A stretch of DNA of 64,000 nt from an uncultured Limimonas sp. (GTDB taxonomy: Bacteria; Pseudomonadota; Alphaproteobacteria; Kiloniellales; Rhodovibrionaceae), in the NCBI GenBank assembly GCA_913055855.1, contig CAJXKW010000002.1, forward strand, positions 9,150 through 73,149. The letters run 5' to 3'. This document shows, piece after piece, positions 9,674 through 40,362 of this stretch; position 1 is the first letter of the stretch; the number at the start of each line of letters is the position of its first letter. The notes beneath the pieces are model-generated. The model did not search any database. It worked only from the letters and a program-made list of their open reading frames with translations, and was not told where the DNA came from. A program made the position numbers and the translations under genes.

Positions 9674-9723
9674 CTCTCGACCGCCTCCACGCTCTCAAGC
9701 CTCGTGGTTGGACATACGCCGGA

Positions 9724-18300: not shown

Positions 18301-21156
18301 CTCTACGCCCAGGGCGCCGTCCAGGCTCGCCGTCGCCTTGCCCTTGGGCGCCGCCAGCCGGACGAAGACGCTGCCCAATCCCGCCTTGGGCGCCGGGACA
18401 CCGAGTTCGTTGATGCGCGCCAGCGGAATGGGCGTGGACTGTACGGTGATTTCGCTCCAGTCCGCGCCGTAGCGCCCGCGCGCGTTGAACCTGGCGAGAT
18501 CGGCGAGCTGGATCCGGCCGTCCAGCATCAGGCCCGGCTTCTCCGATTCCGGCGTCAGCCGGAGGTCCACCGACACCGTCGGCTGCCCCGACGGTCCTAG
18601 GCGCGCATCGACCCCGCCCTTTGCGCCCGTCCAGCGCGCGGTGGCGCGGAAGGGCGCGCGGTTCCGGCCGTGCGCGGGCATCTCGATGCCGGGCAGGACG
18701 GCGACGGATTCCGGCGGCGCGGGGACGCTCGCCGGCGGAGTCAGGGCCACGGCGTCGCCCTCGGCATGGGCGCGCACGGCGAGGTCGCGGCGCAGGTCGC
18801 CGAGCCCGCCCCCCTGCGCGTCCGCGGTGACGGTCACGTCGACCGGGCCGTGCCACGCCCCGCGCGGCAGCTCGGGGTCCAGTCCCGTGGCCACGAGCGC
18901 GGCGGCCATGCGCAGATCGTCCTCGCCCGATGCCGGCGCGAGGTAGCCGGCGCCGGTCACCGCGCCCCCGCGCAGCCGGGCCCGGCGCAGGTCCAGGTCG
19001 AGCGCGCCCCGGCGCGCCGCGGCATCGAGCTTCACCGCCTTGAGGGGCGGCCGTCCAGGCAGGGTGACCGTGTCGGCCGCAAGCCGCACCGAGACGTCAA
19101 GCGCCGCGAGGCGTTCCAGCACCGCCGCCGGATGGCGCAACCGCCCCGGCTTCCCGGCATTTTCCGCGCCAGGGGCGGACGCGGACGCCGCCCCGTTGTC
19201 GCCGTCGGCGCCGCCGGCGTCGGTCTGCCCGCTGTCCAGGTACGGCCCCAGCGCGAGGGTCTCCGTCCGGAGCGCCAGATGCGCGCCGTCCAGCGGGGTA
19301 GCGCGCGGGATCGTCCCGGCGCCGGTGAGCTTCGTCTCGCCCAGGCGCAGCACGGCGTCGCGCAGGCGGAGGGTGTCCGCCTGCGCCCCCGGAACGAGTT
19401 CGCCCGCCACGCGCAACGGCTGCGCGGCCACGGCGGCCGGGGCGGCGGCGCCGAGCAGGTCGGCGACGCGCGCGACGTCGAGGGAGATCTCGGCCTGGGC
19501 GCCAGCGGTGCTGTCCCAGCCGGCGTCGAGGCGCAGCTCCGCGTCGTTCCGCGTCGCCGTGAGGTGGCCGCCCAGGCTGCGCCCGCGGCCGCGGATCAGC
19601 GGCGCGAGCGGCGCCATCTGGCCGGAAAGCTGCACCGTGCCCAGCCGCGGCGCCTCCAGCTCGCCGGCGATGTCCGCGGGGCGCGTCAGCGCGTCGGTCT
19701 GCAGCGTGAAGCCGCGCAGGGTCGCTTTTCCGCCGGTATGGGCCAGTTCCGGCGCGGCGATCCGGAGGGCACCGTCCAGGCTTTCGCGCAGCGCCCGGCG
19801 CGTGGCGCCCGTCCCGGTCACCTCGGCGGTGGCATCGACGCGGCCCTTCGCGCGCGCGGTGAACGCCGCCGCCGCGAGCCCTTCGCCCGCGAGCGACGCC
19901 CGGAGCTTCAGGCCGTCCGTTTCCGCCGGCGCGCGCACGGCCGCTTCGGCGTCCAGTTTGCCCTGCGCCCAGGGGCCAGCCCAGGTGACCTTGAGCGCCT
20001 TCTTGTCCATGGTCACCCGCGCGGTGCTGCCGGGAAGGCCGGGCAGCCGTCCGGGCGCGGCGAGGTCGGGCAGGTTCAGGGCCACATCGACGTCGGCGGC
20101 GCCGACCCACCCGGTGGGCAACCGGCGTGCATTTCGCCTCCCGTCCCGGGTGCCGGCGTCGCCGCCGTCCTTGCCGGCGCCGGATCCGAGCGCCCGGCGC
20201 AGGCGCGACGGTTGGAGCCGGTCGAGCGTGATCTCCCCCGTGATCCCGGCCCGTTCCGCGGCGTCGATGTCCAGATCGCCGTGAGCGCGCAGCGCCTTTC
20301 CGGCATCCAGTTCGAGGTTGCTCAGCGCCGCCTGCCGGCCTTCGACCCGGGCATCCGCGGTGATCGTGAGCGGCGCGCCGCCGGGGAGCGCCGCGAGCTT
20401 GCCGTCGAGTTCGCCGGACAGGCGCAGGGTTTCGCCGCCGCCCATGGTGCCGTCGAAGGTCAGCCGGCTTTCGGCGTTGCGCAGCGTAGCCTTCACCGCA
20501 CGCCGGCCGTCGGGATCGGCGGCGGTGGCCACGGCCGCGTCCACGGCAAAGGGAACGCCGGCGAGGGTGAGCTGGGCGCTGAACGCGACGGCGTTCTCGG
20601 GGGCACCGTCCGTGGCACCCTCGGCGCCGGCCGAAGGGGCGTCTTCCGCCGCCGGCTTCGACGCCGCCCGGCCCCCGTTTCCGCCCGGCGTCGCGGCGGC
20701 GAGCTGGATCGCGTGCGCGGCCAGGGCCGGCCGGTGCGTCCCGGCCCGCGGCCCCTGAAGCCGGCCACCATCGACGGCGACCGCGCCGGCCCAGGCGACC
20801 GGATCGCGTTCGCCGCGCCAGAGCATGCCCCAGCAATCGCCGCTCATGCGCACGCGCTTGGCCGCGAGCCGCATCGCCGGCCCGCCGGCGCCGCTTTCCA
20901 GCTCCGCCCGCGGCGCCGCGAGCGTCAGGGCGAAGTCCGCGTCGAAGCGCGCCCCGGCGACGTCCACGCGTTCGACCGGCAGCACCATCGGCCCCACGGT
21001 TTCCACCGCACGTGCGGTGACCGCGGGCACCGTGGCCACGGCGGCGACCCCGCCGCCGAGGGCAACGAAAAGCCCCGTGCCCAGGCCCAGGCCCCAGCGC
21101 AGCGGCCTAGACGCTTTGTTCGGCGAGCCGTTCGAGGAGGGATCGGGCTGTGACAT
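15325..21156 (-). CDS. giant AsmA-family (YhdP/TamB-like) envelope protein, about 1943 aa
   Basis: There is a single N-terminal TM anchor (WGLGLGTGLFVALGGGVAAVATV). A long Ala/Gly/Leu/Arg-rich beta-type body follows. The C-terminus (LRMQGRDIDVRDARLLP...PLRIGGTLEKVSVEI) resembles the AsmA_2/DUF3971 ends. The start is either 21156 (ATG) or 21180. Confidence 0.5.
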   Translation of the reverse strand: MSQPDPSSNGSPNKASRPLRWGLGLGTGLFVALGGGVAAVATVPAVTARAVETVGPMVLPVERVDVAGARFDADFALTLAAPRAELESGAGGPAMRLAAKRVRMSGDCWGMLWRGERDPVAWAGAVAVDGGRLQGPRAGTHRPALAAHAIQLAAATPGGNGGRAASKPAAEDAPSAGAEGATDGAPENAVAFSAQLTLAGVPFAVDAAVATAADPDGRRAVKATLRNAESRLTFDGTMGGGETLRLSGELDGKLAALPGGAPLTITADARVEGRQAALSNLELDAGKALRAHGDLDIDAAERAGITGEITLDRLQPSRLRRALGSGAGKDGGDAGTRDGRRNARRLPTGWVGAADVDVALNLPDLAAPGRLPGLPGSTARVTMDKKALKVTWAGPWAQGKLDAEAAVRAPAETDGLKLRASLAGEGLAAAAFTARAKGRVDATAEVTGTGATRRALRESLDGALRIAAPELAHTGGKATLRGFTLQTDALTRPADIAGELEAPRLGTVQLSGQMAPLAPLIRGRGRSLGGHLTATRNDAELRLDAGWDSTAGAQAEISLDVARVADLLGAAAPAAVAAQPLRVAGELVPGAQADTLRLRDAVLRLGETKLTGAGTIPRATPLDGAHLALRTETLALGPYLDSGQTDAGGADGDNGAASASAPGAENAGKPGRLRHPAAVLERLAALDVSVRLAADTVTLPGRPPLKAVKLDAAARRGALDLDLRRARLRGGAVTGAGYLAPASGEDDLRMAAALVATGLDPELPRGAWHGPVDVTVTADAQGGGLGDLRRDLAVRAHAEGDAVALTPPASVPAPPESVAVLPGIEMPAHGRNRAPFRATARWTGAKGGVDARLGPSGQPTVSVDLRLTPESEKPGLMLDGRIQLADLARFNARGRYGADWSEITVQSTPIPLARINELGVPAPKAGLGSVFVRLAAPKGKATASLDGALGVEGVRTRGPAPYDRIANADLELGATFAPDAATTLSGKVRVEGTHWAAISGEIGESGLDARLETVEPVPLDALVPAEAPATLGGTAQLTVDARRAGDGGTELAWQASATNGFLRYPGLREAVGVQGAKGTARIARGGLSYEGSLTTDPARIAVTFAPTANTQGPAGEQADAGAPESAGDHTLRLALAEAAPLSDFAALVPITKVPRQSRRVVSAQLRRGAVETLALRTTCPGQHPLVCLRKLGDGRALAADLRLADLRLRPVAGSRPVALDGLTARLREGTLTAELAAAEGDGAADGGKAGADTPASAIRKGRVEVQELFGAKPVASGRLRARLALSDLIAWAERRGRDIRDRLNLASAEGTVMLTAEGTRRFGTPAQTGEVTAEVVEAALKREDGGRVDLRGGTARLDWAEDGTLTGDLALERVGAKGWQASGEVALAADSGAPAKLRPTAVDLAGRFAPAFAERLGVDKLAWSDDAIGVTWQGEADATGRLAGEVALDGGDACLSWEMAAGPFDIKRCAKEALTGTAKLAVMPGARTWSVETGGLRLGDRILIADIDARGRLQPLEARATVDLAKIPLSWVRERAPQGWLPAIEGAVGGTVEIAWPLDWDAELNLGGLRTPGLLPAMDPAQGRVTASPRRVDASLATPSLGPDVGELNLEVTTQRRGAAGPRTHGRIALQRADARNILGARKPRADETAAEGAAGGAAGDADEPGLAAAWTRLDKRLQRLPVPRLPGQGHLRLRSTDIRVAGRKGPRTAGLDGALTWTDTRTRLAAEVAEQGAAADERTILLSTLATVRTDPNLISPRASLEASTSAIALDDLWRTVTGRGPDLNGRLEADLSLAGRWRDGIDALTGQLRMQGRDIDVRDARLLPAMFAAAKDRPEGDILDELRMDRVVARVMLRDGKLTADPLFAETPLGLAFAVLEVTPAEGKLAGRGSIKPLDSLTDWVNAIPVIGKTAQSVAETMEMPLRIGGTLEKVSVEIDEGETG

Positions 21157-23728
21157 CGCTCTCGTCCAGTTCGAGCGCACGCTTCAGGGCCTTCCGCGCG
21201 GCGTCGTCGCGGCCCTGGCGCATCAGGATCATGCCATGCGTCCGGTGGAAATTGACGGACATGGGGTTGGCCTCGACCGCCGCCTTGGCGGCCGCGGCGG
21301 CTTTCTCGATCCGGCCGTCCTCGAAGTAGAGCAGCGCCAGGGCGTATTGCAGCGACGGGTTGCCCTTGGCCTTCTCGCGTAGCGGTGCCAGAAGCTTCAG
21401 CGCCTTGTTGTTGGCCCCGTCCTTCCAGGCGCCGATGCCGCGCTGGAGCCGTTGCACCGTGGTTTGCGCCACCCCGTCCGGATCGCCGACCGGTGTGCCG
21501 CTGCCACCGGACGCGCCGCTGCCCGCGCCGGCATCACGGCCGCCGGATCCGCCGCTACCGGCGGCGTTGCCGCCGCTGGCGGAGGCCTTGCGCACCGGCC
21601 CTTCCGGCGCAACCGCTTGTCCGCCGGGCGGCGGCGCGTCGAGCACCGGCTTGAACCTCACCGGGCCGGTCAGACGATCCTTGATCGCGGCGACCCGTGT
21701 GGCCCCCCACCAGTTGCGCGAGGCCTCCACAATGCTGCTGCGCATGCCGCCGGCGACCTGCACGGCCGTGGGCGCGCCCTTGGCGAAGTCGTTCTCGCGC
21801 AGCAGCGGTGCCGCAGCATCGAGGGCGACGTCGACCCGGCTGTTCAGGCGGAACGTGTTCCCCACGACCTTGGGGTCGGCGGCCGCGACCTTCATCCCGA
21901 CCGCGTTGTTGCGCAGCGTGCTCCCCGCGAGCTTGGGATAGGCGTTGTTCTCGACGGCAAGCCCGACGGTGTTGCCCGTGAGCGTCGCACGGCGGATCCG
22001 CGGATCGGCATTTTTCACCGTGATGCCGGTCGCCGCGCCGGTCACTTCGACGTGGCGCAGCCGCGAGGGCGCGCCCGCCCCGGCAACGATGGCGACGCCC
22101 TTCCAGGAATCGGCCTCGCCGCGCGGCTTGAAGCGGATGGGCCGGTCCGCCCGCCCCTCGGCGATCAAACGCCCGCGCACCTTCAGGCGGCCCGCCGCTT
22201 TGGCGGCGATGGTCGTGCCCGGCTGGATCGTCAGTTCCACACCCCGGGGGACGGTCACCGGCCCGTCGAGCACGTAGGGCGAGGCGCCGGCCAGCCACGT
22301 GGTATCGGACTCGATCGTTTCGGGCACCTTGGTCGGCCCCGGCTCGACCGCGTGCACGGCATGGGCCTCACCCGTCGGGGAAAGCTGGTCCGCGCGGTCG
22401 CGCGCCCGGACGCGATAGTAGCCCACGGGGGCGAGCGGATCGGGGTCGATGAAGCGTTGTTTCTTCGTGGTGCCCACGCGTTCGAAGCCATCCAGCGCGC
22501 TCGGGCTGCGCTCGACCACGTAGCCGGTAACGTCCGGCGCATCCGCCGCGTCCCACGCCAGGCGCACCTTTCCGTCGGTGTAGCGCGTGCGCATCCCGCC
22601 CGGCCGGGCGGGCCGCTCGGCGTCGATGCCGACGCGCCCGCCCGGGAACAGGGCATCCAGTTCATACCCGTCGGCGTCCGCACCTGTTACGCGCACCGCG
22701 CTGCGCGGACACCGTTCAGCCCCGGCGAGGTCGCGCTCGGCGACGTAGACGTAGGGCGCACTGTCCTGTGCCGGTTCGCGCGGCGTCAGGGGAATGCGCA
22801 GGTCGTCGCACAGGGTTACCGACCCGCGGGTCAGCGGCTTGTCGGTGTGCACCTCGAAGGTGACCGTCTGGCGCGTGCCCAGCCACGGCCCGGACGGCTG
22901 CATGCCCGCCTTGAGCAGCTCCGGCCCGAAGTGTTCCGGCGCGTCCTCCGGCGCGGGGATCGCGTCGACGAGTTCGCGTGCGAGCCGGTCGATGACCACG
23001 AGGCGGTTGCTCTCGTTGAGACTGGTCAGGGACTTGAGCACCTGGAACGCCGTGCCAACGGGATCCAGGGTGAAGCCGCCGTGGTGCCCGCGGGCGACGT
23101 GCTTGCCGCGCCAGCGCGGACAGCCGCTGGCCACGTCGAGCATGCGCAGGTCGACCTCGACGGAGATCTGCGAGTACGCCACCAGAAAGAGCTGGTCCAC
23201 GCCCTTGACGCGTCCGAGCACCACGGCGTCCGCGCCCACGGCGCGCCCGATTTTCAGCGCCGTGGCCTTGTCGATCCGGTCGCCGGGTTGGAGGTCCTTG
23301 CCCGGAAGGTTCTTGAGCGCGTCGATCACCGCGGCGCGCTCGACATCGCCGAAGGGAAGCTGGCTCAGCCGGTTGCGGAACGCGGCCGTGACCAGGTAGC
23401 TCGCGCGCTCGGGCTCGGCGCCGCCGGTGAATTCCTTCTCCGTCGGCCAGAACGGAAGCACCGCAACCTGCTGCGGCGGCTTCGCGCGCATCCGGCTGTC
23501 CGACCACGCGCGCGCGCCGCTCTCGCGCTCAACGAGCTGAACCGAAGGACAGCCGCCCTTGCGCGCCTGAAGATCCGACACGCTCTCCGCGCCTTCCGCG
23601 CGATCCGGCGTGCCCGTCCCGCCGGCGCCGGGCGCCTGATGGCCCGAGGTCACGCACCCCGCCAGGACGAGCGCAAGCGCCGCCGCGCAGACGGACAAGC
23701 GACGCACCGGGCGCGCACCCTGCACCAT
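21107..23728 (-). CDS. multidomain lipoprotein: DUF799/LpoB/CsgG-like module + Ig/FN3 + right-handed parallel beta-helix (PbH1) + TPR
   Basis: The lipobox is LVLAGC after ATG 23728, with an AAGGAGA SD. VAVLPFWP...GADAVVLGRV...LRMLDVASG is the DUF799/LpoB-type module. VRLAWDAADAPDVTGYVVERS...YYRVRA is FN3. The repeated GNTVGLAVENN/NNAVGMKV turns are beta-helix. The C-terminus has TPRs (ALALLYFEDGRIEKA...). Confidence 0.55.
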   Translation of the reverse strand: MVQGARPVRRLSVCAAALALVLAGCVTSGHQAPGAGGTGTPDRAEGAESVSDLQARKGGCPSVQLVERESGARAWSDSRMRAKPPQQVAVLPFWPTEKEFTGGAEPERASYLVTAAFRNRLSQLPFGDVERAAVIDALKNLPGKDLQPGDRIDKATALKIGRAVGADAVVLGRVKGVDQLFLVAYSQISVEVDLRMLDVASGCPRWRGKHVARGHHGGFTLDPVGTAFQVLKSLTSLNESNRLVVIDRLARELVDAIPAPEDAPEHFGPELLKAGMQPSGPWLGTRQTVTFEVHTDKPLTRGSVTLCDDLRIPLTPREPAQDSAPYVYVAERDLAGAERCPRSAVRVTGADADGYELDALFPGGRVGIDAERPARPGGMRTRYTDGKVRLAWDAADAPDVTGYVVERSPSALDGFERVGTTKKQRFIDPDPLAPVGYYRVRARDRADQLSPTGEAHAVHAVEPGPTKVPETIESDTTWLAGASPYVLDGPVTVPRGVELTIQPGTTIAAKAAGRLKVRGRLIAEGRADRPIRFKPRGEADSWKGVAIVAGAGAPSRLRHVEVTGAATGITVKNADPRIRRATLTGNTVGLAVENNAYPKLAGSTLRNNAVGMKVAAADPKVVGNTFRLNSRVDVALDAAAPLLRENDFAKGAPTAVQVAGGMRSSIVEASRNWWGATRVAAIKDRLTGPVRFKPVLDAPPPGGQAVAPEGPVRKASASGGNAAGSGGSGGRDAGAGSGASGGSGTPVGDPDGVAQTTVQRLQRGIGAWKDGANNKALKLLAPLREKAKGNPSLQYALALLYFEDGRIEKAAAAAKAAVEANPMSVNFHRTHGMILMRQGRDDAARKALKRALELDESDVTARSLLERLAEQSV

Positions 23729-23771
23729 GCCCCGTCTCCTTCGTGCTCGGCCGGTCGCGGCCCAACCCGCG

Positions 23772-24950
23772 TCAGCCCGGCCCCATATCGCGATAGCGCC
23801 GCCGATCGCGGACGACGCGCTTGAGGTAGTGTTTGGTCTCCGCATAAGGCAGATCGGCACGCAGGCGGTGATAGACCTGTTGCGGGTTCATCCGGTTGAT
23901 CTGCCGTGCCGCCGCCGAGACGTTGGTGTCCCCGGTAAACGTCTTGGCCACGTTCCCGGCCCCCGTGTTGTAGGCGGCGATGGCACAGTATTCCCGGCTT
24001 TCCCGGTCGCGCACCGGCTCCAGATAGCGCGCCATCAGGATGTGCAGATAAGCGCTGCCCAGCTCGACATTCTGCTCGGGCTCGAAGAGGTATTCGGGTG
24101 AGGGCGCCCGGTCCTTGCCCTTGACGAACTTGTAGGCATCGCGCCCGCCGGTCGCGGGCACGATCTGCATCAGTCCGAACGCGGGAATGTGGCTCTGCGC
24201 GCGCGGGTTGAAGGAACTCTCGTTCTTCATGATGGAAAGCAGCAGCGCGGTATCCACCATGTATTTGCGCGCATACGCCTTGGCCAGCGGCGCCACGCGC
24301 TCCGCCGAAAGCCGCTTGTGGTCGGGGAGCATCGGGATGGTCACGCGCCCGACCTTGTGTTGGCGCCCCTTCGAGTCCGTCACCGTCCGGGTGTCGAAAT
24401 CGGGCTCGGCATCTTTGTCGGCGAGACGGCCCAGCTCGGCCTCGCGGCTGGCCGCCTTCTGCCCGCCCCCGCTGACGGCCTTGTCGCCGGCCTCCCGCGC
24501 CTTCCGGTCGACGTAATCGCCCACCACGTCCTGCTGGTCGAGTTCCCGGGAACTCGCCCCCAGGGTTTCGTTGAGCGTGCGCTTGAGCGCGTCCCGGTCG
24601 GTTGTTTCCTGCGCCTCGACCGTGATCGTGCCGTCTTCGTAATCCACGATAACGCGCCGACCACGATCGTCGGTATAGCCGACCCAGGTGTGCTTCGACG
24701 GCATTTTCGCCGCCTCGCCCCAGCGCTTTTGCAGATCGCGCTTCATCGCCTTGAACGCCTGGTCGATGGCGCGGTCCATGGCGGCGAAGCGGGCGTCCAT
24801 CCGCGCGTCGAACGCCTCGAACTCCTTGTCGATCTCCTCGCCGAAGGATTCGAAGCTGTCGTCGTCGAGCAGGTCGGCCCGGCCCGGCCGCGCGCCCGCC
24901 GTCAGCAATGTGGCGGCAGACAGGCCGGTGAGCAGCGTCCGGCGGTTCAT
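23772..24950 (-). CDS. MltC-like lytic murein transglycosylase (DUF3393-like N-domain + SLT domain)
   Basis: LLLSIMKNESSFNPRAQSHIPAFGLMQIVPATGGRDAY...AIAAYNTGAGNV carries the SLT catalytic Glu-Ser motif. The N-terminus has an RRTLL Tat-like signal. Confidence 0.75.
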   Translation of the reverse strand: MNRRTLLTGLSAATLLTAGARPGRADLLDDDSFESFGEEIDKEFEAFDARMDARFAAMDRAIDQAFKAMKRDLQKRWGEAAKMPSKHTWVGYTDDRGRRVIVDYEDGTITVEAQETTDRDALKRTLNETLGASSRELDQQDVVGDYVDRKAREAGDKAVSGGGQKAASREAELGRLADKDAEPDFDTRTVTDSKGRQHKVGRVTIPMLPDHKRLSAERVAPLAKAYARKYMVDTALLLSIMKNESSFNPRAQSHIPAFGLMQIVPATGGRDAYKFVKGKDRAPSPEYLFEPEQNVELGSAYLHILMARYLEPVRDRESREYCAIAAYNTGAGNVAKTFTGDTNVSAAARQINRMNPQQVYHRLRADLPYAETKHYLKRVVRDRRRYRDMGPG

Positions 24951-24957
24951 GACCACC

Positions 24958-26100
24958 TCACCCGTGCTGTGCCACCGCGACTTTGGCTTGCTTGAGCACG
25001 CCCGACTGCCCGTTGGCAGCGCGCAGGACGGCCGCGTCGGCGTTGGAGATCACGATCTGGCCGTCCGAGGTGACCCGCTGAACCGCCACGACGTAGGGCT
25101 GTTTCCCCATCATGTTCAGCGACTTCGCCTGCTGGACGTTCGTCGTGTATTGCAGCGGCCCCCGCTTGAACAGCGCCGCCTTCTCGACCTTCGCGTTCTC
25201 GTAGACGACGTTACCGTTCTCGTCGCGCACCGTCGGCGACAGGCTCGGCGTGTACTGGAAGGCACCGCGCAGGTTGAGGATCACGCCCGTGGCCTTCTGC
25301 GCCTTGTCGGCGAGGTTGCCGCTCTCCGCCGAGACAGCCTGGACGTTGTCGCTGCCGCCCGAACCGGCGCCGCCGCCGGTCACGGCCCCGGTGCCGTCGC
25401 CCGGCGTCTGGCCGCCGGCGCCGCTGCCGCCGCGCTTCGAGCGGCCGTCGCTCCCGGCGTTGCCGCCCTGTGTCCCGCCATCCGTGCTGCCGCGCTCATT
25501 CTTCTGCAGCACGGGCTGCATTTGCTGGTACAGGCCGGCGCCGCCGCCGCCGTGCTGCTGACAGGCCTTGGCGAAGTTCTCCATGCACACGCGCAGGGTT
25601 ACCTTCGCCTTTGGGAAGCGCTTGCCGCTGCCGTAGCTGCCGCCCGAGACCCACTCGACGGACTTGTCGACCGTCACGGCCCCCTGAACGCTGCCCTTGG
25701 CCTTGCTCTCGATGAGCTGCTTGTTCAGGCTCGCGTCCTCGACCACGCTGCGGCTGCGGATCGCCACGCCGGAAATCAGCTTGACCAGCCGCGCCTGCGC
25801 CACGACGCGCGCGGCCTGAAGCGCCATGGCCTCGGCCTGGACCGGGTTCTCCTTGGGCTCGCTGGTGCCGATGCCCGTCGCCTGCAGAAAGCCGCGTTGC
25901 CAGTTCTCGACGGAGCGGCCCTGCTGCGTCTCGGACGTGCGGGTGAATGCGCCCTGGGATTGCGCGTGCGCCGCCGCTGGCATCACCACGGCCGCAACGG
26001 CGGCGACCAGAAGCACACGCGGCATGCCGCGGCGCTGCAGGGCCTGGCCGGCGGACTGGCCGGACGCCGGGCGGGTGCGGCGCGGGGCGTGTCGAAACAT
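24958..26100 (-). CDS. secreted LPP20/FlgP-like domain protein with a long Gly/Ser/Thr linker and an unassigned C-domain
   Basis: FLQATGIGTSEPKENPVQAEAMALQAARVVAQARLVKLISGVAIRSRSVVED follows the LPP20 pattern. An approximately 90-aa G-rich linker follows. The start ATG at 26100 has a GGAGAGG SD. Confidence 0.5.
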   Translation of the reverse strand: MFRHAPRRTRPASGQSAGQALQRRGMPRVLLVAAVAAVVMPAAAHAQSQGAFTRTSETQQGRSVENWQRGFLQATGIGTSEPKENPVQAEAMALQAARVVAQARLVKLISGVAIRSRSVVEDASLNKQLIESKAKGSVQGAVTVDKSVEWVSGGSYGSGKRFPKAKVTLRVCMENFAKACQQHGGGGAGLYQQMQPVLQKNERGSTDGGTQGGNAGSDGRSKRGGSGAGGQTPGDGTGAVTGGGAGSGGSDNVQAVSAESGNLADKAQKATGVILNLRGAFQYTPSLSPTVRDENGNVVYENAKVEKAALFKRGPLQYTTNVQQAKSLNMMGKQPYVVAVQRVTSDGQIVISNADAAVLRAANGQSGVLKQAKVAVAQHG

Positions 26101-26132
26101 GGGCAAAACCTCTCCTCTCGCTTGGCGCATCT

Positions 26133-27284: not shown

Positions 27285-27363
27285 GGATCCTCCCTCGGGT
27301 GTGCCGCGCCCTGCGGTGCCGGCCCACAACCGCATACCGGCCCGGCCGCGGCGCGGATTCCGT

Positions 27364-28704
27364 TTAGAAATCGAGACCGCCCGTGTCGCCGCCCGTATCG
27401 CCGCCGGTGCCGCCCGAGGCGCCGGCGTGTGCGCCACCGCCGGCATCCGCCAGGCGCGCTTCCAGACGCCGTTTCACCGCCGTGCGCAGTTTCTGCGCGA
27501 GCACCGCCATCTGCTTCTTGACGTAGGTTTCCTGCGTCAGGCGCGCGTCCTGGCTCGCCGGAACGAGGTCCTGCGCGTCCACCTGCTTGGTAATGCGGGC
27601 GCCGTTGACGTTCATGGTCGCGCTGCCCGCGAGCGTGGCGACCATCCGATAGTATTTGCCCGCAAGCGCCGCCTTGCCCTCGGGCAAGTCGTCGGCGCTC
27701 ACGCGTTTCTTGAACATGCCGACGTTGATGATGTTCGCGCGGACGGCGATGTCGTGCCGCTGCTCGCGATCGACCACGGAGAACGTCGAATCCGAGCCGA
27801 ACGCGGCGGCCAGCTCGTTGCGCAGCTCGGGAACCGGCCGGCCATCCGTCGCCTTTGCGGCGACCACCGCAACCGTACGGGCCAGGGGCTCACGCGGGAC
27901 GCAGACCCGGGCATCCAGCGTCATGGCCAGCACGTCCTGCCCGCGCTCGGTCACCACCTCGTTGCGCACGACCGAATATTTGACGAACCCGCGCGCCTGG
28001 GCGGAAAAGCGCGACATGAAGCGCTCTTTGACGTTGCCGTTCTTCGATGCGACGAGCGACTTGCTCGCACCCTCCACGAGGGCACCACTGCGCTGGCGCG
28101 CGGCTTCCATCATCAGCCGCCCGACCAGCTTTTCGCGCGCCTGGGCGCGGGTTTCCACCTCGGCCAGCGGCTGTTTGCCCCGGACGGTCGCCGGGAGATA
28201 CGCCGAACAGCGCGCGTCCCCTTCGAGCTTTTTGCGCTCGCCTTGATCGGTTTCGCGCCGCGCCTTCACCTCTTCCCGCTGACGCATGCGTTCCAGTCGC
28301 GCGCGCGCTTCCTCGATCGCCCGGTCGACCTGATCCGGGTCGACCTTCCCCTTAACGCGCACGCAGATCTCGCGCCCGCTCTCGTTCTCCTGGACCACGC
28401 GCATGTTCGTCAGCGCGCCGGCGACGACGGTCTCCACCACGTCGCCCTTGAGTTCAAAATCCTCGACGGCCGATACGGCGCGAACCACGGACTTGTGACT
28501 CGCCACAGCCCGTCGCTTCGCCTGGGCCAGGGCCGCTTCCCGGCCCTGCGCCGGGGTCTCGCTGTCGCCGTAGGTGTAGCACCCCTGCCCCGAGACCGGT
28601 TCCAGCGCGGCCGCGGCCGCACCGTTTGCGTTGGCGGCAAGGAGACCGCCCAGGCATGCCGCCAGGGCCGCGGTCAGCGCGCGGCGTCCGGATGCACGTG
28701 CCAT
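27364..28704 (-). CDS. exported (possible lipoprotein) multi-LPP20-like/LpoB-like protein with a Gly-rich C-terminal tail ending GGLDF
   Basis: The signal is RRALTAALAAC. Two LPP20-like stretches follow, then a VAVVAAKATDG...FSVVDRE module. The tail reads GGGAHAGASGGTGGDTGGDTGGLDF-stop. Confidence 0.4.
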   Translation of the reverse strand: MARASGRRALTAALAACLGGLLAANANGAAAAALEPVSGQGCYTYGDSETPAQGREAALAQAKRRAVASHKSVVRAVSAVEDFELKGDVVETVVAGALTNMRVVQENESGREICVRVKGKVDPDQVDRAIEEARARLERMRQREEVKARRETDQGERKKLEGDARCSAYLPATVRGKQPLAEVETRAQAREKLVGRLMMEAARQRSGALVEGASKSLVASKNGNVKERFMSRFSAQARGFVKYSVVRNEVVTERGQDVLAMTLDARVCVPREPLARTVAVVAAKATDGRPVPELRNELAAAFGSDSTFSVVDREQRHDIAVRANIINVGMFKKRVSADDLPEGKAALAGKYYRMVATLAGSATMNVNGARITKQVDAQDLVPASQDARLTQETYVKKQMAVLAQKLRTAVKRRLEARLADAGGGAHAGASGGTGGDTGGDTGGLDF

Positions 28705-28744
28705 GCTCACCCCCATGGTTCGCGCCGAGTGCGCCCGGAACCTG

Positions 28745-30142
28745 TTAGAAGTTGCTCACGTTGCTGCCCGCGCCGCTCTCGGCCGGCGAGGCGACATTGC
28801 CGGAGCCGGAGCCGGAACCGGAACCGCCGGTGTTGAAATCGCCGCTGCTTCTACGACCCTGGCGCGTGGCCTCCGCGCCACTGGCCTCCTCCGCGAGGGA
28901 CTCCAGCTCCTGCGCCATCTGCCGGCTCTCCGGCGACCAGACGTAGACGTCCGTCTGCATCGGCACGTTCGCAGCCGGATGCTGGCCCTTCCAGGTATAG
29001 GCGCGCGTGGCCCCCTTGAGCTCGATCTTCTTGGCCTTGGCGCGGATCAGCGACTTGAACTCCTGGTTGTTGAAGCTCTTGCTCGACCCGTCGGCGTAGG
29101 CGCGGAAGGTGTTGGTGCTGTCCGACATCTGCCGGCTCGCGACGTCCTCCGCGACGAACTGCGCGATCTGGCTGCGGCCGATCAGGGCTGCCTTCTGCTC
29201 GTTCACCATTGAGGACTGCGTGCGATACACCGGGGCGAAGCTGACCAGCACCTTGGTGCCGTCCGCCTTGTTCCACACGCGCACGCCCTGGCTCAGCGCG
29301 AGGAAATTGGGGTTGTTCTGCAGCTTGCGCTTGATCTTCTGAACCACCGGCTGGCCCTTGGGACCTTTCTCGATGGGCACATTCTCGTTGTAGATGCTCT
29401 CCGCCAGGGCGGCCATGCGCGGCGACCACACGATGCCCACCAGCACCGTGTAGTTCTGGTCCATGTTGTCGCCTTCCGCGTTAAATATGGGGACGGCCCC
29501 GTTGAGCAGCAGCCGGGCGCCGGAAGCGACTTTCTCCTGGTATTTCTCCTGGATCTGGACCCGCTTGCGCTGGCGCGCCTGCTTGTTGCCGCCCTTCCAG
29601 TCCGGATCGAACTTGCGGATCTGGGCGTCCAGCGCCTCGTTGGTGAGCTTCTGCATGCGCTGGACCGTGGAGACGTTGTCGCGCGCCTTCTTGAGCTGCG
29701 GCGGCACCTGATCCCCGCCCTGCTGCAGAACCTCAAACGCGCGATCGGAACGGATGACGCTGCCCACGGTGTTGGCCATCTCGCTCTTGGCCTTGAGCAG
29801 CGCCGCGTTGAACGCGGTCTGGCGCGCATTGACCCAGTTCTTGCTGCCGAAGTCCGCGCGCACCTGGGCCTTCCCGCTGGCGACAAAGAAGGTGCGCCCC
29901 TGGCCCACGTCGTTGATGCCCTCGGTGATCCCCTTCTTGCTGAGCCACGCCTGCCAAAGCCGCGTGGGCGTCTCGCGCTGGCTTTGCCGCGCGGCCTGCT
30001 CCTTGCTCTGGGTGGCGACGTCGCTCGGCTTGGGTTGGGTTACCTTTTCGCCAACCTCCTGCGCGCTGGGCGTGCCCGCCGGCACGACCGCCAGCGCGGC
30101 GATCACCACGGCGGCGCGTGCAGGTGTCCGGCTGGTCCTCAT
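28745..30142 (-). CDS. secreted LPP20-like protein with a (GS)n tail ending SGAGSNVSNF
   Basis: The signal is ARAAVVIAALAVVPAGTPSAQ (ATG 30142, AAGGGGGG SD). FFVASGKAQVRADFGSKNWVNARQTAFNAALLKAKSEMANTVGSVI is an LPP20-type pattern. The tail reads GGSGSGSGSGNVASPAESGAGSNVSNF-stop. Confidence 0.4.
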   Translation of the reverse strand: MRTSRTPARAAVVIAALAVVPAGTPSAQEVGEKVTQPKPSDVATQSKEQAARQSQRETPTRLWQAWLSKKGITEGINDVGQGRTFFVASGKAQVRADFGSKNWVNARQTAFNAALLKAKSEMANTVGSVIRSDRAFEVLQQGGDQVPPQLKKARDNVSTVQRMQKLTNEALDAQIRKFDPDWKGGNKQARQRKRVQIQEKYQEKVASGARLLLNGAVPIFNAEGDNMDQNYTVLVGIVWSPRMAALAESIYNENVPIEKGPKGQPVVQKIKRKLQNNPNFLALSQGVRVWNKADGTKVLVSFAPVYRTQSSMVNEQKAALIGRSQIAQFVAEDVASRQMSDSTNTFRAYADGSSKSFNNQEFKSLIRAKAKKIELKGATRAYTWKGQHPAANVPMQTDVYVWSPESRQMAQELESLAEEASGAEATRQGRRSSGDFNTGGSGSGSGSGNVASPAESGAGSNVSNF

Positions 30143-30197
30143 CGTGTGCCCCCCTTGTTTCGTCGCGTACATGCGCGGCCGGCAACGCGGCCGAGAC

Positions 30198-30758
30198 CTA
30201 GAAAACCGTGTTGTCCTTCTGCAGGGTCAGGGTCTCGCTGACATTGCCGATCACCTTCTCGCCCACGGCCGGCTGATCGGGGTCGTCGCTGAGAACCAGC
30301 TTCATCACCTGCACGCGTGCCTCGTAATCCGCCTGCGCGGTGCCGTCGTCCCCGTAACGCCGCGTTTCGTTCAGGAAGAAGCGCATCTTCAGGTGCGGAT
30401 TGGGCATGTTGCGCGTGAACGCGACCTTATCGGTGGTGTAGAACGCTTCCTGAAAGCCGCGATAGGCCTGCGCCATATTGATGTCGTCGTAGGTGGTGTT
30501 GTTTCGGACCCGAACGAGTCCCGCATTCGGTGTCTGGTCCAGCTTGCCGCGCATATTTGAAACGGCCTTGATGAAAAAGTTCTCGCCGCGCAGCTTGTTT
30601 GCCAAATCATTCGAGAGCTGACGGAGTTGCGGTCCGGTAATCTGGAGTCCCACTGGCTCAGCCGACTTGTCCGGATCCATGACTTTCGTCTTGCCACCAC
30701 AACCCGCAACGCTCACGGCAAGTACCATGCCCAGCAACGCTTTGAGCCAAACTCGCAT
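30198..30758 (-). CDS. LpoB-like (COG3417) lipoprotein
   Basis: MRVWLKALLGMVLAVSVAGC is the lipobox. LVRVRNNTTYDDINMAQAYRGFQEAFYTTDKVAFT parallels the LpoB core (VDSVNNRTNGSLN...). The protein ends in NTVF. Confidence 0.45.
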   Translation of the reverse strand: MRVWLKALLGMVLAVSVAGCGGKTKVMDPDKSAEPVGLQITGPQLRQLSNDLANKLRGENFFIKAVSNMRGKLDQTPNAGLVRVRNNTTYDDINMAQAYRGFQEAFYTTDKVAFTRNMPNPHLKMRFFLNETRRYGDDGTAQADYEARVQVMKLVLSDDPDQPAVGEKVIGNVSETLTLQKDNTVF

Positions 30759-30814
30759 CCGTTTGCATCTCCTCCATGTTTTCAATTCAGCCCGGCGCCT
30801 CGCCGCCCCCCAGG

Positions 30815-31246
30815 CTAGCGCTCGGCACGAACCTGAAGGACGACCTGGCGTCCGCCCGGCGACGGCGCGGCAAGCTTGATGTTTTCCACCTCACCGGAAT
30901 CCAGGAACAGCTTTTGCCATGCGCCCGGATCGCCGACCTGGAATCCGTCCCCGTCCTTCCAGGTTGCCTGATAGCGAAGAACCCGCTTGGCATTGGTGAC
31001 GTTGCGCAGGCTGACGTTCGCCTGCATCAAGCCCTCGAACTTGCGCGACGCCGCACGCTCCACCCGGAGATCGCCGCGTAGCGAGGTGGGGGAATAGCGC
31101 ACCTGAACATTCGGGTCCTTGGCCGCCGGCCCGGTGGTAACGGGGTCGCCCGGCTGGGCGCACCCCGCAACAATGCCCGCAAGGGCGAGGCCGGCACCAA
31201 TTCGGCCGAAGCGGCGCGTCCGCTTTTCCGAATCCATCCGGTTCAC
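30815..31246 (-). CDS. YcfL-like (DUF1425) lipoprotein
   Basis: The lipobox is LAGIVAGC. LMQANVSLRNVTNAKRVLRYQATWKDGDGFQV matches the DUF1425 N-x-[ST]...Y-[RQ]-x-x-W-x-D-x-x-G pattern. The GTG start overlaps the upstream stop (GTGA); an alternative ATG is at 31237. Confidence 0.55.
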   Translation of the reverse strand: MNRMDSEKRTRRFGRIGAGLALAGIVAGCAQPGDPVTTGPAAKDPNVQVRYSPTSLRGDLRVERAASRKFEGLMQANVSLRNVTNAKRVLRYQATWKDGDGFQVGDPGAWQKLFLDSGEVENIKLAAPSPGGRQVVLQVRAER

Positions 31247-33120
31247 GTCGTCTCGTCCTCCGTCGTCTGTCGCTTCACCGTCTGCGCCCCGCCGGCACCA
31301 TCAGCCGGCTCGGACGCCTGAACCTCAAGATGGTCGCGGATCCCGCGACCGTAGACGAAGACCGGCCCATTCCCGCGAAGCCGCACCGTTTCTGTCGCGA
31401 GCGTGGTGCCGTCGGCGTTGTAACTTGCCAGTTCCAGGGTGCGCATGTTTTCCGGCACGCGCAACCGTGCCACGCCCACGGTATGCGGCAGCGTAACCCA
31501 GGACTCGGTTCCGGGCTCGGTGAGTTCGCTGACGGCGATTCCTGTCGCCAACCCCGCGACATCGCCCAACAAGCCGCCGCCGGCGGCCTTGCGCGCCTGG
31601 ACCTGGGCCATGTAGTTGCCCACCGCGCTCAGCGCCGCTTTCGTCATGTGGATAGGGAACTTGTCGTTGAAGTGGCTGAGCGCCATGGCCTCGACGTCGG
31701 CGAGCGGGGTCACGCGCGCCAGGGATTCGCCGTCCGCGCCGTGGATGCGAACACGGTCGATGGTCCGCTCCACGGGTTTGTAGAACGGGATCTGGAGCGG
31801 CACGAAATTGCGCAGACCGGTGGGCAGGATCAGCTTCGCCACGCGCCGCTCCGGCGCCCGCCCGACGTCCAGGACGACGTGAACCAGACGACCGTCGCGC
31901 TCACCCGCCGGCCGCTTGTCATCCAGCGCGTCGATGGCCGCCTGCACGGTCGCGTTGTCCGGACGCAGATCCTGCGCGTCCTGGTACGCCTTGCGCGCCT
32001 TATTCCACTCCTTGTCGGAAACCCGAGTCTTGCCATTTGCGGCCGCAAGTTCCGCCCTGCGCTCGGACCACACCGCGGAGAGGAAATCGCCCAGCGGGTT
32101 CACGTACGGCGTCGGCACCCGGTCCGCCGCGTCATCGCAGACAACGCAGGCCTCTTGTTCGAATTTGTTCTTGAACGTGCTGGTTAGCTTGGAGAACGCC
32201 TCTTCTTGTTGCCCGGAGAGGTTCTTGTTCTGCTTGTTCTCGAACTTGTCCTGGGCCTCCGCGATTTCGCGGCCATAGGCAGCCTGCATGCTGCTCTGCC
32301 AGGCACGCGCGAGTTTGATGTTGTTGCGCACGCCGTCGTCGCCGTTGAGGATTCCGGCCATGGCCTTGTAATCGATGGCCATGATCGCCTCGAAACCCGT
32401 TGCGGCATAGGCGTCCGTAACGGTGTTGATGATCTGATCGTCCACCGACTTGTTCTGCTTGGCCTTGCGCAGATCCGTCACGGCGTGGTCGAAGAATTTC
32501 CGCGCGCAGTCCAGGTTGCCGGCGGCCAAGTGGACACTCCCGCGCTCCAGGAGGCCGAGCGTGCCAAGGCCATCCGCGAGCTCGCGCGGCTTGTCGATCT
32601 TGGTCGCGCCCTGGGCCGCGCTTGCCGCCAGGTACTTCCCGGCGTCGGCCACCGCGCCCTCGTCGAGCTTGTCCAACAGGGGCGCAACGTCCGCCGTGTA
32701 GTCCGAACGGCCCGAGCGGAACGCGGCGTACTTCAGGCTCAGCGCGACCATCTGGACCAGATTCACCTGATCCCCGGCCATCGCCCGCTTCCACGGGTTG
32801 CCCGTCACCTGCGCCTCAATCTGCTCGGTGATGTCCGAATATTCGCCGAACGCACTGTCCAGCTCCAGTGCCCTTTCACGCGCGTCTGCCACATCAAGGT
32901 CGCTCGACATCGGGAACCCCGTGTCCTTCGCCAGCGGCGTGACCGTGCAGCGATGGAGCTTGCTCGCGTCCTCGGGCAGCTTGACCGGTTTCGTCACGCC
33001 CGGTCCTTCTCTCGGCGGCGGCGGTTCCAAACTTCCGGTCGTACACCCGGCGAGGATGAGCGCACCGACGGCGCCCGACACGGCGGTCGCAATCCGCCGC
33101 GTGTGTCTCTGGTCCGACAT
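31243..33120 (-). CDS. large helical/TPR-like lipoprotein (COG3014-like), 625 aa
   Basis: The lipobox is ALILAGC after ATG 33120. The body is helical and Ala/Lys/Asp-rich, with a beta-rich C-terminus. It sits upstream of the YcfL-like and LpoB-like genes, as in the conserved lipoprotein trio. Confidence 0.4.
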   Translation of the reverse strand: MSDQRHTRRIATAVSGAVGALILAGCTTGSLEPPPPREGPGVTKPVKLPEDASKLHRCTVTPLAKDTGFPMSSDLDVADARERALELDSAFGEYSDITEQIEAQVTGNPWKRAMAGDQVNLVQMVALSLKYAAFRSGRSDYTADVAPLLDKLDEGAVADAGKYLAASAAQGATKIDKPRELADGLGTLGLLERGSVHLAAGNLDCARKFFDHAVTDLRKAKQNKSVDDQIINTVTDAYAATGFEAIMAIDYKAMAGILNGDDGVRNNIKLARAWQSSMQAAYGREIAEAQDKFENKQNKNLSGQQEEAFSKLTSTFKNKFEQEACVVCDDAADRVPTPYVNPLGDFLSAVWSERRAELAAANGKTRVSDKEWNKARKAYQDAQDLRPDNATVQAAIDALDDKRPAGERDGRLVHVVLDVGRAPERRVAKLILPTGLRNFVPLQIPFYKPVERTIDRVRIHGADGESLARVTPLADVEAMALSHFNDKFPIHMTKAALSAVGNYMAQVQARKAAGGGLLGDVAGLATGIAVSELTEPGTESWVTLPHTVGVARLRVPENMRTLELASYNADGTTLATETVRLRGNGPVFVYGRGIRDHLEVQASEPADGAGGAQTVKRQTTEDETT

Positions 33121-33131
33121 GTCACCCCCCG

Positions 33132-33137
33132 ATTATA
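33132..33137 (-). promoter_or_regulatory. possible -10 hexamer (TATAAT) in an AT-rich 225-bp gap
   Basis: The reverse strand reads CAGTATAATCGGGGGGTGACATG. A perfect TATAAT lies 11 nt upstream of the 33120 ATG. That is too close for a normal leader plus SD, so it is doubtful. Confidence 0.2.
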
Positions 33138-33345
33138 CTGACACCCCGGGTGCCCACGCCGGCCGCCCGTGGCGGCGCACGGCGCAGCGCGTTATCCCCA
33201 ACCCATCACCCCGAACATCGGGAGGTTACCCCAAAATTTCTGGGAGGTTCAAGGCGAAACTACAATTTGCGTCTGTTTCATCGAGAAGGCGATATATACG
33301 TTTTGACCCGCCCACAACGCGGGCCACCAAAACCCGGCCGTCTAC

Positions 33346-34212
33346 CTAATCATCGCTTCGGAGGACATCGCCACGCTCGATGGGTGCACTCTGTTCAACA
33401 ATTTTCGCAACACTGTACTTCGGATTCACTTGGGTAACCTTCACTGTCCCTTTGCGAAGACCACCCTCAATGGTTTCACTCGTATCGACGCCCTCCAGCT
33501 TCAGGCCCGTTCCATACACGTCGAAGACCTGGCCCTCGGACAGCGAATCCCCGCCGTAATTGAGAAACGCAAAGCCTTGCTTGGTTTTCAACACCGTGAT
33601 CGGGAACACGTTGTTCAGAAATCCGCTCACCAATTTGTCCGCGGCCTTGCGGGTCACCTTGCTCAGCAACGAGATATCGGGCCGGCCGCCCGGCTGCGTG
33701 ACGAGCTTCGGATCGGTGGAGATCTCTTCGGTGACCTGATCGTGGAAGGCGATCCGGTCGTTGGCCACTTTCAGAACCTGTGTTTCGATCGTCACCCGTG
33801 CGATATCGATGCGCCGATACCGGTCCACATTCGGAGCGGCATCTTCGTCACGCCGAAACTTCAGGTCGTGCAGTGAAATCGACATGATATACTGCACGGG
33901 CTTGCTGGGCTCGAACGAAACGTTGCCCGCCTCGCGAAAAGGCGAACTCTTGAGTTTTTGCTCGCTCGCCGTCTGGGCCCGGATGTCCCCGCGGCGCGAA
34001 TAAAGCTCGAACTTCCGGCTGCTGCGCAGGGCGCCCTCGAAGGGGCCGACGATGAGCGACGGCTCGATCCGTTCGCGGTCGCGATGGGGCACCGTATCGC
34101 TGATCAGAATCGGCGACTGCACGGCCACGCGCACTTTCTCCGCAAGGGCCGCACCGCCGGCTGCGCCCATAATCACCACGACGGCCAGTAAACCCGCTGC
34201 TATCCGCCGCAT
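33346..34212 (-). CDS. secreted CsgG/FlgO/LpoB-superfamily protein with a C-terminal small beta-barrel (FlgT_C-like)
   Basis: The start ATG at 34212 has an AGGAGGA SD. The signal is AAGLLAVVVIMGAAGGAALA. The core reads KVRVAVQSPIL...LIVGPFEGALRSSRKFELYSRR. The C-terminus reads GDSLSEGQVFDVY...GTVKVTQVNPKYSVAKIV...IERGDVLR. Confidence 0.4.
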   Translation of the reverse strand: MRRIAAGLLAVVVIMGAAGGAALAEKVRVAVQSPILISDTVPHRDRERIEPSLIVGPFEGALRSSRKFELYSRRGDIRAQTASEQKLKSSPFREAGNVSFEPSKPVQYIMSISLHDLKFRRDEDAAPNVDRYRRIDIARVTIETQVLKVANDRIAFHDQVTEEISTDPKLVTQPGGRPDISLLSKVTRKAADKLVSGFLNNVFPITVLKTKQGFAFLNYGGDSLSEGQVFDVYGTGLKLEGVDTSETIEGGLRKGTVKVTQVNPKYSVAKIVEQSAPIERGDVLRSDD

Positions 34213-34282
34213 CCGCGTCCTCCTGCCCATGCCGTTTCGTCGGGGCGGGCCACCGCAGCGCACCGCCCCCCTCTTCGCTGCT

Positions 34283-34438
34283 TTAGAAATCCGTGAGATT
34301 GCTGCCGGCACCGCTGTCGCCCGCCGGGCTACCCGTGCCGGCGCAACGCGTCGGATCGACCGAACGCGCCGCCGCGCCATTGCCGGCCGCGAGCGCGATC
34401 ACCACACCTGTCACGAATATCCCGACCCGGCGCCGCAC
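34283..34438 (-). CDS. small secreted peptide precursor (about 51 aa) ending SGAGSNLTDF
   Basis: A putative GTG start at 34438 gives VRRRVGIFVTGVVIALAAGNGAAA (signal-like) + RSVDPTRCAGTGSPAGDSGAGSNLTDF. The last 11 codons, including the stop, match the 3' end of the 28745 gene at 24 of 33 nt, and eight of the ten tail residues are conserved. Confidence 0.5.
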   Translation of the reverse strand: MRRRVGIFVTGVVIALAAGNGAAARSVDPTRCAGTGSPAGDSGAGSNLTDF

Positions 34439-34968: not shown

Positions 34969-34986
34969 GTGCGTCTCCTCCCCGCG

Positions 34987-35769: not shown

Positions 35770-35806
35770 GGCGTCTCTCCCCTTCCCTGTCTGGTGTCAT
35801 GGCGCC

Positions 35807-37810: not shown

Positions 37811-37814
37811 TGCC

Positions 37815-40328: not shown

Positions 40329-40362
40329 GGGCGCGGCCCTCGTCTCGCCGGCGCGTTCGGCG

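Follow-up and report, generated by a model that had tools for sequence, protein, structure and literature searches.

Outer-membrane-tethered periplasmic scaffolds recur in bacterial envelopes, with LpoB, the FlgT/FlgP rings, TsaP and PelC as examples. Among the described systems closest to the locus reported here are Campylobacter jejuni Cj0089-Cj0090-Cj0091, an operon of membrane lipoproteins (PMC3100323), and Helicobacter pylori HP0018, a Cj0089 homologue. MltD and AmiA co-purify with HP0018, which shows synteny with HP1457, a homologue of LpoB, and for which its authors propose a role in cell-envelope maintenance (PMC11394524). LpoB activates PBP1B, as cited in that paper (PMC11394524). We analyzed 64,000 nucleotides of DNA from an uncultured Limimonas sp. 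(contig CAJXKW010000002.1, positions 9,150 to 73,149; hereafter, the window, whose positions we use throughout) and found that its minus strand carries, at 21107-34438, eleven co-directional genes, named G0-G10 from high to low coordinates. The locus lies outside the flagellar H-ring, curli and LpoB families as these are defined and is a composite of partly known parts. We tentatively propose, at somewhat short of even confidence, that this operon-like cluster encodes an outer-membrane-tethered, peptidoglycan-associated scaffold that serves envelope maintenance through local wall remodelling and coupling of the outer membrane to the cell wall.

The genes are genuine and co-conserved, and the cluster is not a product of chance. 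Ten are large open reading frames (ORFs) between 21107 and 34380 with coding-type GC content at third codon positions (GC3); the eleventh, G0, is a small ORF at 34283-34438, whose start coincides with the point where a first-pass annotation of the window had ended the cluster. That annotation described eleven consecutive genes for exported proteins, separated by short gaps or overlaps except for one gap of 225 bp. All eleven N-termini do have a hydrophobic stretch, one of the proteins being only 51 aa long, and the spacing was reproduced when we recomputed it with starts backed by homologues and by the gene calls of the ENA metagenome contig ERZ27241914:k141_346604, which measures 73.6 kb at about 70% GC and includes the window: from G1 to G10 the gaps are 225, -4, 56, 55, 28, 79, 32, 7 and 43 bp, the sole long gap being that between G1 and G2. 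No terminator-like sites were found on the minus strand within the cluster, and a promoter scan returned no sigma-70-like sites, which is uninformative for an alphaproteobacterium of 70% GC.

Motifs of the form [LVI]-x-[GAS]-C are present in G2 (LAGC), G3 (VAGC), G4 (VAGC), G7 (LAAC), G10 (LAGC) and G6 (LAAC), as many lipoboxes as had been claimed, but only five of them are solid because the G6 cysteine is not conserved, being missing in four of six homologues.

The best protein relatives of the window are found in Rhodovibrio salinarum, at no more than 73% identity, which marks the source as a Rhodovibrio-like alphaproteobacterium. Both there (L004) and in a Rhodovibrio metagenome-assembled genome (MAG; L002/L049) the order G1-G2-G3-G4-G5-G6-G9 is kept, at 35-73% identity, and a closer relative (L045/L046) keeps the order from G2 to G8, at 51-74% identity in L045. 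G7, G8 and G10 are missing from the R. salinarum locus and are therefore lineage-specific additions to a seven-gene core; G10 has no homologue in the related loci fetched. The R. salinarum locus is flanked by a siderophore non-ribosomal peptide synthetase cluster and a Liv-type ABC transporter. Surveyed for co-occurrence, as the first-pass annotation had suggested, the gene set proved to be co-conserved in Rhodovibrio genomes, and two modules of it recur beyond them.

Module A consists of G1 (FlgT_M+C-like), G2 (a tetratricopeptide repeat (TPR) lipoprotein), G3 (YcfL/DUF1425) and G4 (LpoB-like). The triad G2-G3-G4 has the gene order of Cj0089-Cj0090-Cj0091, in which a TPR, an Ig-like DUF1425-type and an LpoB-like lipoprotein follow one another at tight spacing. 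G2 (31243..33120) is a 625-aa lipoprotein, against 453 aa for Cj0089, with a helical, TPR-like N-terminal half and a conserved C-terminal domain. Its family is represented by 543 clusters at E<=1e-3 in a profile search and has no Pfam model of its own: Pfam recognizes TPR only, together with SH3_3 fusions in 5 of 50 members, and the relatives that were looked up had no name or were named merely as TPR proteins. The start of G3 (30815..31246; 143 aa) overlaps the G2 stop by 4 bp. G3 is a lipoprotein of the DUF1425/YcfL family (PF07233; E 2.8e-15, 56.4 bits against a Pfam gathering cut-off of 28.3), aligns with Escherichia coli YcfL (hhalign probability 91%, E 9e-7), and its profile matches PDB entries 3o0l (1.4e-7) and 4GIO, which is Cj0090 (2.9e-4). 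G4 (30198..30758) is a 186-aa lipoprotein that is LpoB-like at superfamily level only; the gene in its position in L044 gave a weak Pfam match to LpoB. A YcfL-LpoB-like pair behind a large lipoprotein, as seen in the first pass, is therefore what the locus holds, G2 being the TPR lipoprotein and G3 a PF07233 member. The ycfL-lpoB adjacency in E. coli K-12 was confirmed and the G3 family is homologous to YcfL, but a G2-like or G1-like partner is lacking there and G4 resembles LpoB only marginally (hhalign probability 13%). No penicillin-binding protein gene lies within the cluster.

G1 (33346..34212) encodes a Sec-exported protein of 288 aa, in which an alpha/beta domain of LpoB/CsgG/FlgT_M-like type is followed by a beta-barrel domain of FlgT_C/TsaP type. 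G1 itself had no Pfam match; among six members of its family, FlgT_C was matched by three (1.2e-4), CsgG by two (E 2.6e-3 to 4.9e-3), and LpoB and FlgT_M by one each (FlgT_M at 0.014), all these values coming from homologues. Against PDB the family profile aligned its C-terminal beta-barrel domain with TsaP (6ve2_O, 3.7e-9) and matched 3jc8 at 8e-6, whereas sequence searches of PDB with G1, G4 and the G4 family gave no useful match. TsaP (6VE2, 3JC8) forms a ring around the type IV pilus secretin PilQ; G1 differs in having no LysM domain, and no secretin or pilus gene is nearby.

G1-like genes are recurrent partners of the triad. In three distant lineages (L043, L044 and L050, with GC of 0.48, 0.58 and 0.41) a G2-like gene, a DUF1425 gene and a gene for a lipoprotein of ~180 aa occur in this order, the DUF1425 gene coming directly after the G2-like gene as it does in the Rhodovibrio-type loci L004, L047 and L049. 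Each of the three carries at least one G1-like gene in the triad cluster, adjoining the G2-like gene in L043 and L044. A FlgT_M+C-type partner is thus found with the triad here and in all three, while none is described for Campylobacter; in our locus the triad is, in addition, joined to module B and to a lytic transglycosylase gene.

Two of these loci, in unrelated genomes, have a cytoplasmic-looking TIR_2-domain protein (MADIFISY...) directly after the G1/G2/DUF1425/LpoB-like module (L043 9840-10703 and L044 8357-9265). The defence-system reading that these genes prompted was dropped, since PADLOC gave no match for G1-G10. In L050, a run of twelve co-directional genes (~10 kb, 200-10810) surrounds the triad, nearly all with signal-peptide or lipoprotein N-termini; among them are a G2-like gene with an SH3_3 fusion, a gene for a protein of 590 aa that has two FlgT_C-like domains, a terminal G1-like gene and the gene of an M48 peptidase whose N-terminus is of twin-arginine type (MDRRTFL...).

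Module B consists of G5 (DUF6844), G6 (FlgT-like) and a TPR lipoprotein, which is G7 here. G5 (28745..30142) is a Sec-exported protein of 465 aa; it and its homologues carry the precomputed Pfam assignment PF20891, and a ten-sequence profile matched Francisella tularensis FTT_1539c (4QVR) nearly over the full length (E 1.3e-13, residues 4-430). The AlphaFold2 (AF2) model of G5 was too poor for use (pLDDT 45), and the fold search gave 4QVR alone. Downstream of G5 homologues, a G6-like gene was present in all 19 loci with at least 2 kb of sequence (G1-like in one), and the next gene after G5 encoded a TPR lipoprotein or a G6/G1-like protein in all 31 loci with at least 900 nt, counts that include some loci duplicated from the same organism. 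A scan of a genome collection seeded on G5 returned two loci.

In the exported 450-aa protein G6 (27364..28716), an N-domain resembling SHS2/FlgT_N is accompanied by a long helix and by two alpha/beta domains of LptE/CsgG/PelC type. Its AF2 model (pLDDT 75) resembled in Foldseek a chain of the LPHT ring (8z5n, 9.5e-8) and Vibrio FlgT (3w1e, 3.1e-7 over about 300 columns), followed at lower rank by LptE, CsgG, PelC, TraT and HpaA; FlgT_N on the isolated N-domain was sub-threshold (E 0.031). With FlgT, then, the locus shares a multidomain fold in G6, FlgT_C and FlgT_M matches in the G1 family, and a place among outer-membrane-proximal periplasmic proteins. It differs in that the domains are split over G6 and G1 instead of lying as FlgT_N/M/C in one protein, all Pfam FlgT matches being below cut-off, and in that flagellar context is absent and no FlgO or FlgP orthologue was identified.

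These matches revise what the first-pass annotation had read in the cluster. It had predicted LPP20/FlgP-type domains in at least three genes; LPP20 (PF02169) had no match at E<=0.1 in G1-G10 as whole proteins, nor at E<=10 in isolated domains of G6, G8 and G10, the scan of G5 covering the whole protein only. Support for LPP20 is limited to the name that UniRef gives to the orthologues of G5 and G6 in R. salinarum and to the SHS2-type fold common to FlgT, FlgP and Lpp20 (PMC12222027), and because of this shared fold the idea is partly rescued for the FlgT-like G6, not for the remaining genes. The supposed CsgG/FlgO/LpoB/DUF799 modules in at least three genes survive as weak resemblances, to LpoB and GNA1162 in G10, to LpoB in G4 (below cut-off) and in G1 by way of its homologues. 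A CsgG channel was not confirmed: the resemblance is weak and at the level of fold (G1 homologues and a mid-rank Foldseek match of G6), CsgG (PF03783) reaches only E 2.6e-3 to 4.9e-3 in G1 homologues, and there are no curli genes. The expectation of ring-protein folds proved sound, given the G6 model matches to FlgT and an LPHT-ring chain and the G1 profile matches to FlgT_C and TsaP. Profile-profile comparisons of G5 with G6, G8 with G6, G8 with G5 and G1 with G6 were all insignificant.

G7 (26133..27284) is a lipoprotein with an N-terminal TPR region (TPR_19, 3.9e-8) and a C-terminal SLH domain (PF00395; 1.4e-7, one repeat, 31.8 bits against 20.8), and has a homologue of 67% identity in L045. 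The TPR scaffolds of the earlier description are real in G7 and G10 according to Pfam; of its SLH-like repeats, one stands above the cut-off in G7 and the additional, degenerate ones are visible by eye only. In marine loci the TPR lipoprotein sits between G5 and the G6-like gene. We observed that in marine locus L025 this TPR lipoprotein (2819-3736) and the G6-like protein (3909-5105) have a near-identical N-terminal region of ~70 aa, as do their counterparts in L011, L023 and L026 (51-64% identity, motif DDWTDE.LCGWM), and that the marine TPR proteins have a Cys-rich C-terminus (CSLGNC...GYC).

Beyond the two modules, the cluster encodes a dedicated lytic transglycosylase, as the first-pass annotation had it, and this gene is conserved with the core in R. 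salinarum and the MAG. G9 (23772..24950) is a Tat-exported, MltC-like family-1 enzyme with Pfam SLT (8.3e-28) and MltC_N (3.4e-10) domains and intact catalytic motifs ES, GLMQ and AYN. Against the NCBIfam MltC model it scored 1.6e-61 and 208.5 bits, below the equivalog cut-off of 375. E. coli MltC is a lipoprotein; G9 has the same MltC_N and SLT architecture and motifs, but no lipobox, and instead a twin-arginine motif, RR-T-L-L, that is kept in two homologues (L004 and L002). G8 (24958..26100) is an exported protein of 380 aa, with two domains joined by a Gly/Ser-rich linker, that had no Pfam, NCBIfam or PADLOC match; its homologue in L045 is 55% identical. G10 (21107..23728) is an 873-aa lipoprotein with an LpoB/GNA1162-like domain (isolated segment: Pfam LpoB, PF13036, at 22.4 bits against a cut-off of 22.3, GNA1162-like at 7.4e-5), a possible beta-helix and C-terminal TPR repeats (TPR_16, 4e-10). 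An FN3 plus parallel-beta-helix module had been read into G10; FN3 was not detected by Pfam on the isolated segment, and the beta-helix part has a NosD match (E 2.6e-4) that falls below the cut-off.

The two modules are connected in several lineages. A metagenomic locus (L020) encodes a 579-aa protein whose N-terminal half is G6-like and whose C-terminal half is G1-like; a spirochaete locus (L003) has a G1 homologue beside a G5-like gene; and in Francisella the DUF6844 gene FTT_1539c neighbours FTT_1540c, annotated K07337 (LpoB-type). In our locus, G5 is flanked by G4 on its upstream side and by G6, which has LptE/CsgG-type domains, on its downstream side. For these reasons, the fusion, the adjacency and the Francisella pair, we interpret the Rhodovibrio arrangement as a functional connection rather than a chance one. 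The view that the assembly matches no recognized system did not hold, given that counterparts exist for both modules, in gene order for module A (Cj0089-91) and as a family with a crystal structure for module B (FTT_1539c, 4QVR). What is new is the linkage of the modules, including a natural fusion, the recurrent G1-like partner of a Cj0089-91-type triad, a Tat-exported lytic transglycosylase in the core, and a conserved C-terminal tail with a copy on G0. Because the parts come from known, poorly understood families, we regard the locus as a good lead and not as a new kind of machine.

The tail is a signature of the G5 family, each complete member of which ends in S-[ND]-x-x-[DNEK]-[FY]-COOH, preceded by a low-complexity linker; Rhodovibrio forms, G5 among them, end in ...SGAGSNVSNF and marine forms in ...GLEGVSSDPDDF. 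Across six frames of the window and loci L002-L044, the only ORFs that terminate in the motif are those of the G5 family and G0. G0 (34283..34438) encodes 51 aa from a GTG start inside a 72-aa TTG ORF, with an in-frame GC3 of 0.77; after a signal-peptide-like N-terminus, about 25 residues follow that end in ...SGAGSNLTDF, identical to the G5 C-terminus at 7 of 10 positions. The nucleotide differences between the two tails fall largely on third codon positions, which argues for selection on the peptide and against recent duplication. G0 has no homologue in the other loci, and a 28-aa peptide representing the marine-type G5 tail had no match in PDB. A looser form of the tail (...GGLDF, ...GGLNH or ...LLDF) ends G6-family proteins in several lineages, G6 itself ending in ...GGLDF. 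TPR domains commonly bind C-terminal peptides, and a TPR lipoprotein is co-conserved with G5; we therefore speculate from these sequences that the tail of G5, like that of G0 and the looser one of G6, may be a docking peptide for that lipoprotein.

How might these proteins work together? The first-pass annotation saw in the cluster a machine that crosses peptidoglycan, which goes beyond the evidence: no beta-barrel, secretin, channel, inner-membrane platform or ATPase is encoded in it. With no pore, platform or energy source, the locus is probably not a secretion or transport machine, and a peptidoglycan-associated scaffold or regulator fits better. The scaffold reading is suggested by relatives that point to the wall, by the lytic transglycosylase gene of the cluster and by two kinds of domain, SLH in G7 and SH3b in relatives of G2; in H. 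pylori, HP0018 is likewise linked to a lytic transglycosylase, MltD, and to the amidase AmiA. We envisage that the lipoproteins G2, G3, G4, G7 and G10 would hang from a membrane, that the FlgT-like G1 and G6 would oligomerise on them, that G9 would open the sacculus locally, and that the complex would be held to the wall through SLH in G7 and through the SH3b domains that some G2 relatives have.

Several points weigh against this scaffold. The putative kinship of G2 to HP0018 and Cj0089 is drawn from gene order and from the relation of G3 to Cj0090, and G4 fell far short of LpoB model TIGR02722 (E 5e-5, 23.3 bits against a cut-off of 110.55). TM-scores between G6 and FlgT were only 0.21-0.29 because domain orientations differ, and the G6 model has no beta-hairpin where the FlgP/FlgT family has the insert to which the literature ties ring formation. 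No interpretable fold was obtained for G8 or for most of G5. Finally, outside Rhodovibrio-type genomes modules A and B were not found joined, and they may work independently.

A more ambitious reading, which is that of the first-pass annotation and which we judge unlikely, is that the proteins build a non-flagellar periplasmic ring or cage, in which G1, G6 and possibly G5 and G8 would polymerise into a large ring tethered to the outer membrane and span the peptidoglycan through a hole made by G9, the ring supporting an envelope structure. FlgT and TsaP, which G6 and G1 match best by structure or profile, form rings, and PelC, CsgG and TraT, also matched by G6, are ring oligomers; a dedicated lytic transglycosylase is conserved with the core, and TPR scaffolds are present. 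Yet the conserved core and its immediate surroundings hold neither a secretin or beta-barrel nor an ATPase or any component of the inner membrane, the G6 model gives no clear sign of the hairpin insert that forms rings, and no G9 occurs in module-B loci of marine origin or in L043, L044 and L050, which carry module A.

The opposite view, that envelope lipoprotein operons unrelated to one another happen to be neighbours and share no function, is distinctly unlikely. The modules are separate in most lineages, the 225-bp gap divides G1 from G2, and composition is uneven: GC3 is 0.73-0.78 in G1, G3 and G4 (30198-34212) against 0.84-0.92 in the remaining cluster genes and the flanks, and overall GC falls to 0.62-0.65 at 30-34 kb. 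Against this, G1-like proteins are partners of either module, and in L020 one is joined to a G6-like half, the joined order is kept across Rhodovibrio lineages at identities down to 35%, and the DUF6844 gene of Francisella stands beside an LpoB-type gene. We give a similarly low probability to an undescribed non-flagellar periplasmic assembly, in which G1, G6 and G5 would oligomerise below the outer membrane, their tails inserting into the TPR lipoprotein, and G0 would act as a competitor or primer.

An accessory of the flagellar motor, of H-ring or basal-disk type, encoded away from the flagellar genes of a polar-flagellated alphaproteobacterium, is quite improbable. It would account for the likeness of G6 to FlgT and to an LPHT-ring chain and for the FlgT_N, FlgT_M and FlgT_C matches scattered over G6 and G1, and published work on Helicobacter reports that HP0018 tracks with sheathed flagella and that Lpp20 and HP1454 contact FlgP and FapH. 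All FlgT family matches are sub-cut-off, however, and the neighbourhoods argue otherwise. The first-pass annotation had seen no flagellar, curli or pilus genes nearby, which is borne out in the window and at the R. salinarum locus: flagellar genes are absent from the 64-kb window and from 21 kb around the R. salinarum locus. Marine module B lies beside housekeeping-type genes, judged by N-terminal sequences, and DUF6844 occurs in Francisella, which is not known to have flagella.

Directly upstream of the cluster, a type VI spike island occupies 34552-43143 on the minus strand, consisting of VgrG (40363-43143), a DUF2169 and pentapeptide protein (37815-40328), a 687-aa pentapeptide-repeat protein (35807-37870), DUF3540 (34987-35769) and a 138-aa Tox-PAAR-like protein (34552-34968). 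No recognizable effector gene follows it, the next genes all coding for signal-peptide proteins. That the cluster is the cargo or immunity island of this locus is a very remote prospect: it follows the PAAR-like gene, which shares its strand, after 113 bp, and periplasmic immunity proteins commonly bear signal peptides or lipoboxes, but ten large conserved proteins are atypical of immunity genes, type VI effectors are not known to carry signal peptides, and no VgrG lies within 10 kb of the core in R. salinarum, so that linkage to VgrG/PAAR genes is not upheld. Because the R. salinarum locus lacks a type VI island, we consider the adjacency incidental.

Other features of the window were noted beside the cluster and its upstream island. 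Downstream, an ORF of 1951 aa that is rich in Ala, Gly and Arg and has a single membrane segment at its N-terminus (15325-21180, minus) overlaps the G10 stop by 74 bp in its longest reading; the protein had no Pfam or NCBIfam match and was left out of the system, and its C-terminus recalls AsmA/TamB-type proteins by eye only. Beyond the spike island, the plus strand carries a 270-aa ORF without NCBIfam match (43090-43902), about where the contig gene calls list a 270-aa transglutaminase-type product. Next come genes for a protein with an autotransporter beta-domain (44100-45296) and for a Big_9/cadherin/Calx-beta protein of 791 aa (45321-47696), and then a VgrG-like gene shorter than that of the spike island (47809-49392). 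From 49500 to 64000 the minus strand holds a long run of small, packed ORFs of very high GC3, resembling ribosomal-protein operons by size and order alone.

Three orphan families are brought together by this locus: the HP0018/Cj0089-91 type, YcfL/DUF1425 and DUF6844/FTT_1539c. So far each has been investigated on its own, in pathogens and with no mechanism to hand, HP0018 as a cell-envelope factor, Cj0091 as an adhesin and colonisation factor, and FTT_1539c as an immunogenic antigen. Their shared neighbourhoods, the gene fusion and the dedicated lytic transglycosylase lead to testable hypotheses for the functions of HP0018, Cj0091 and FTT_1539c. The conserved tail of DUF6844 proteins, copied on a 51-aa secreted peptide, offers a new and simple handle for experiments and, if the docking idea is true, would represent a new C-terminal docking code for envelope proteins that extends from Rhodospirillales to marine bacteria and possibly to Francisella.

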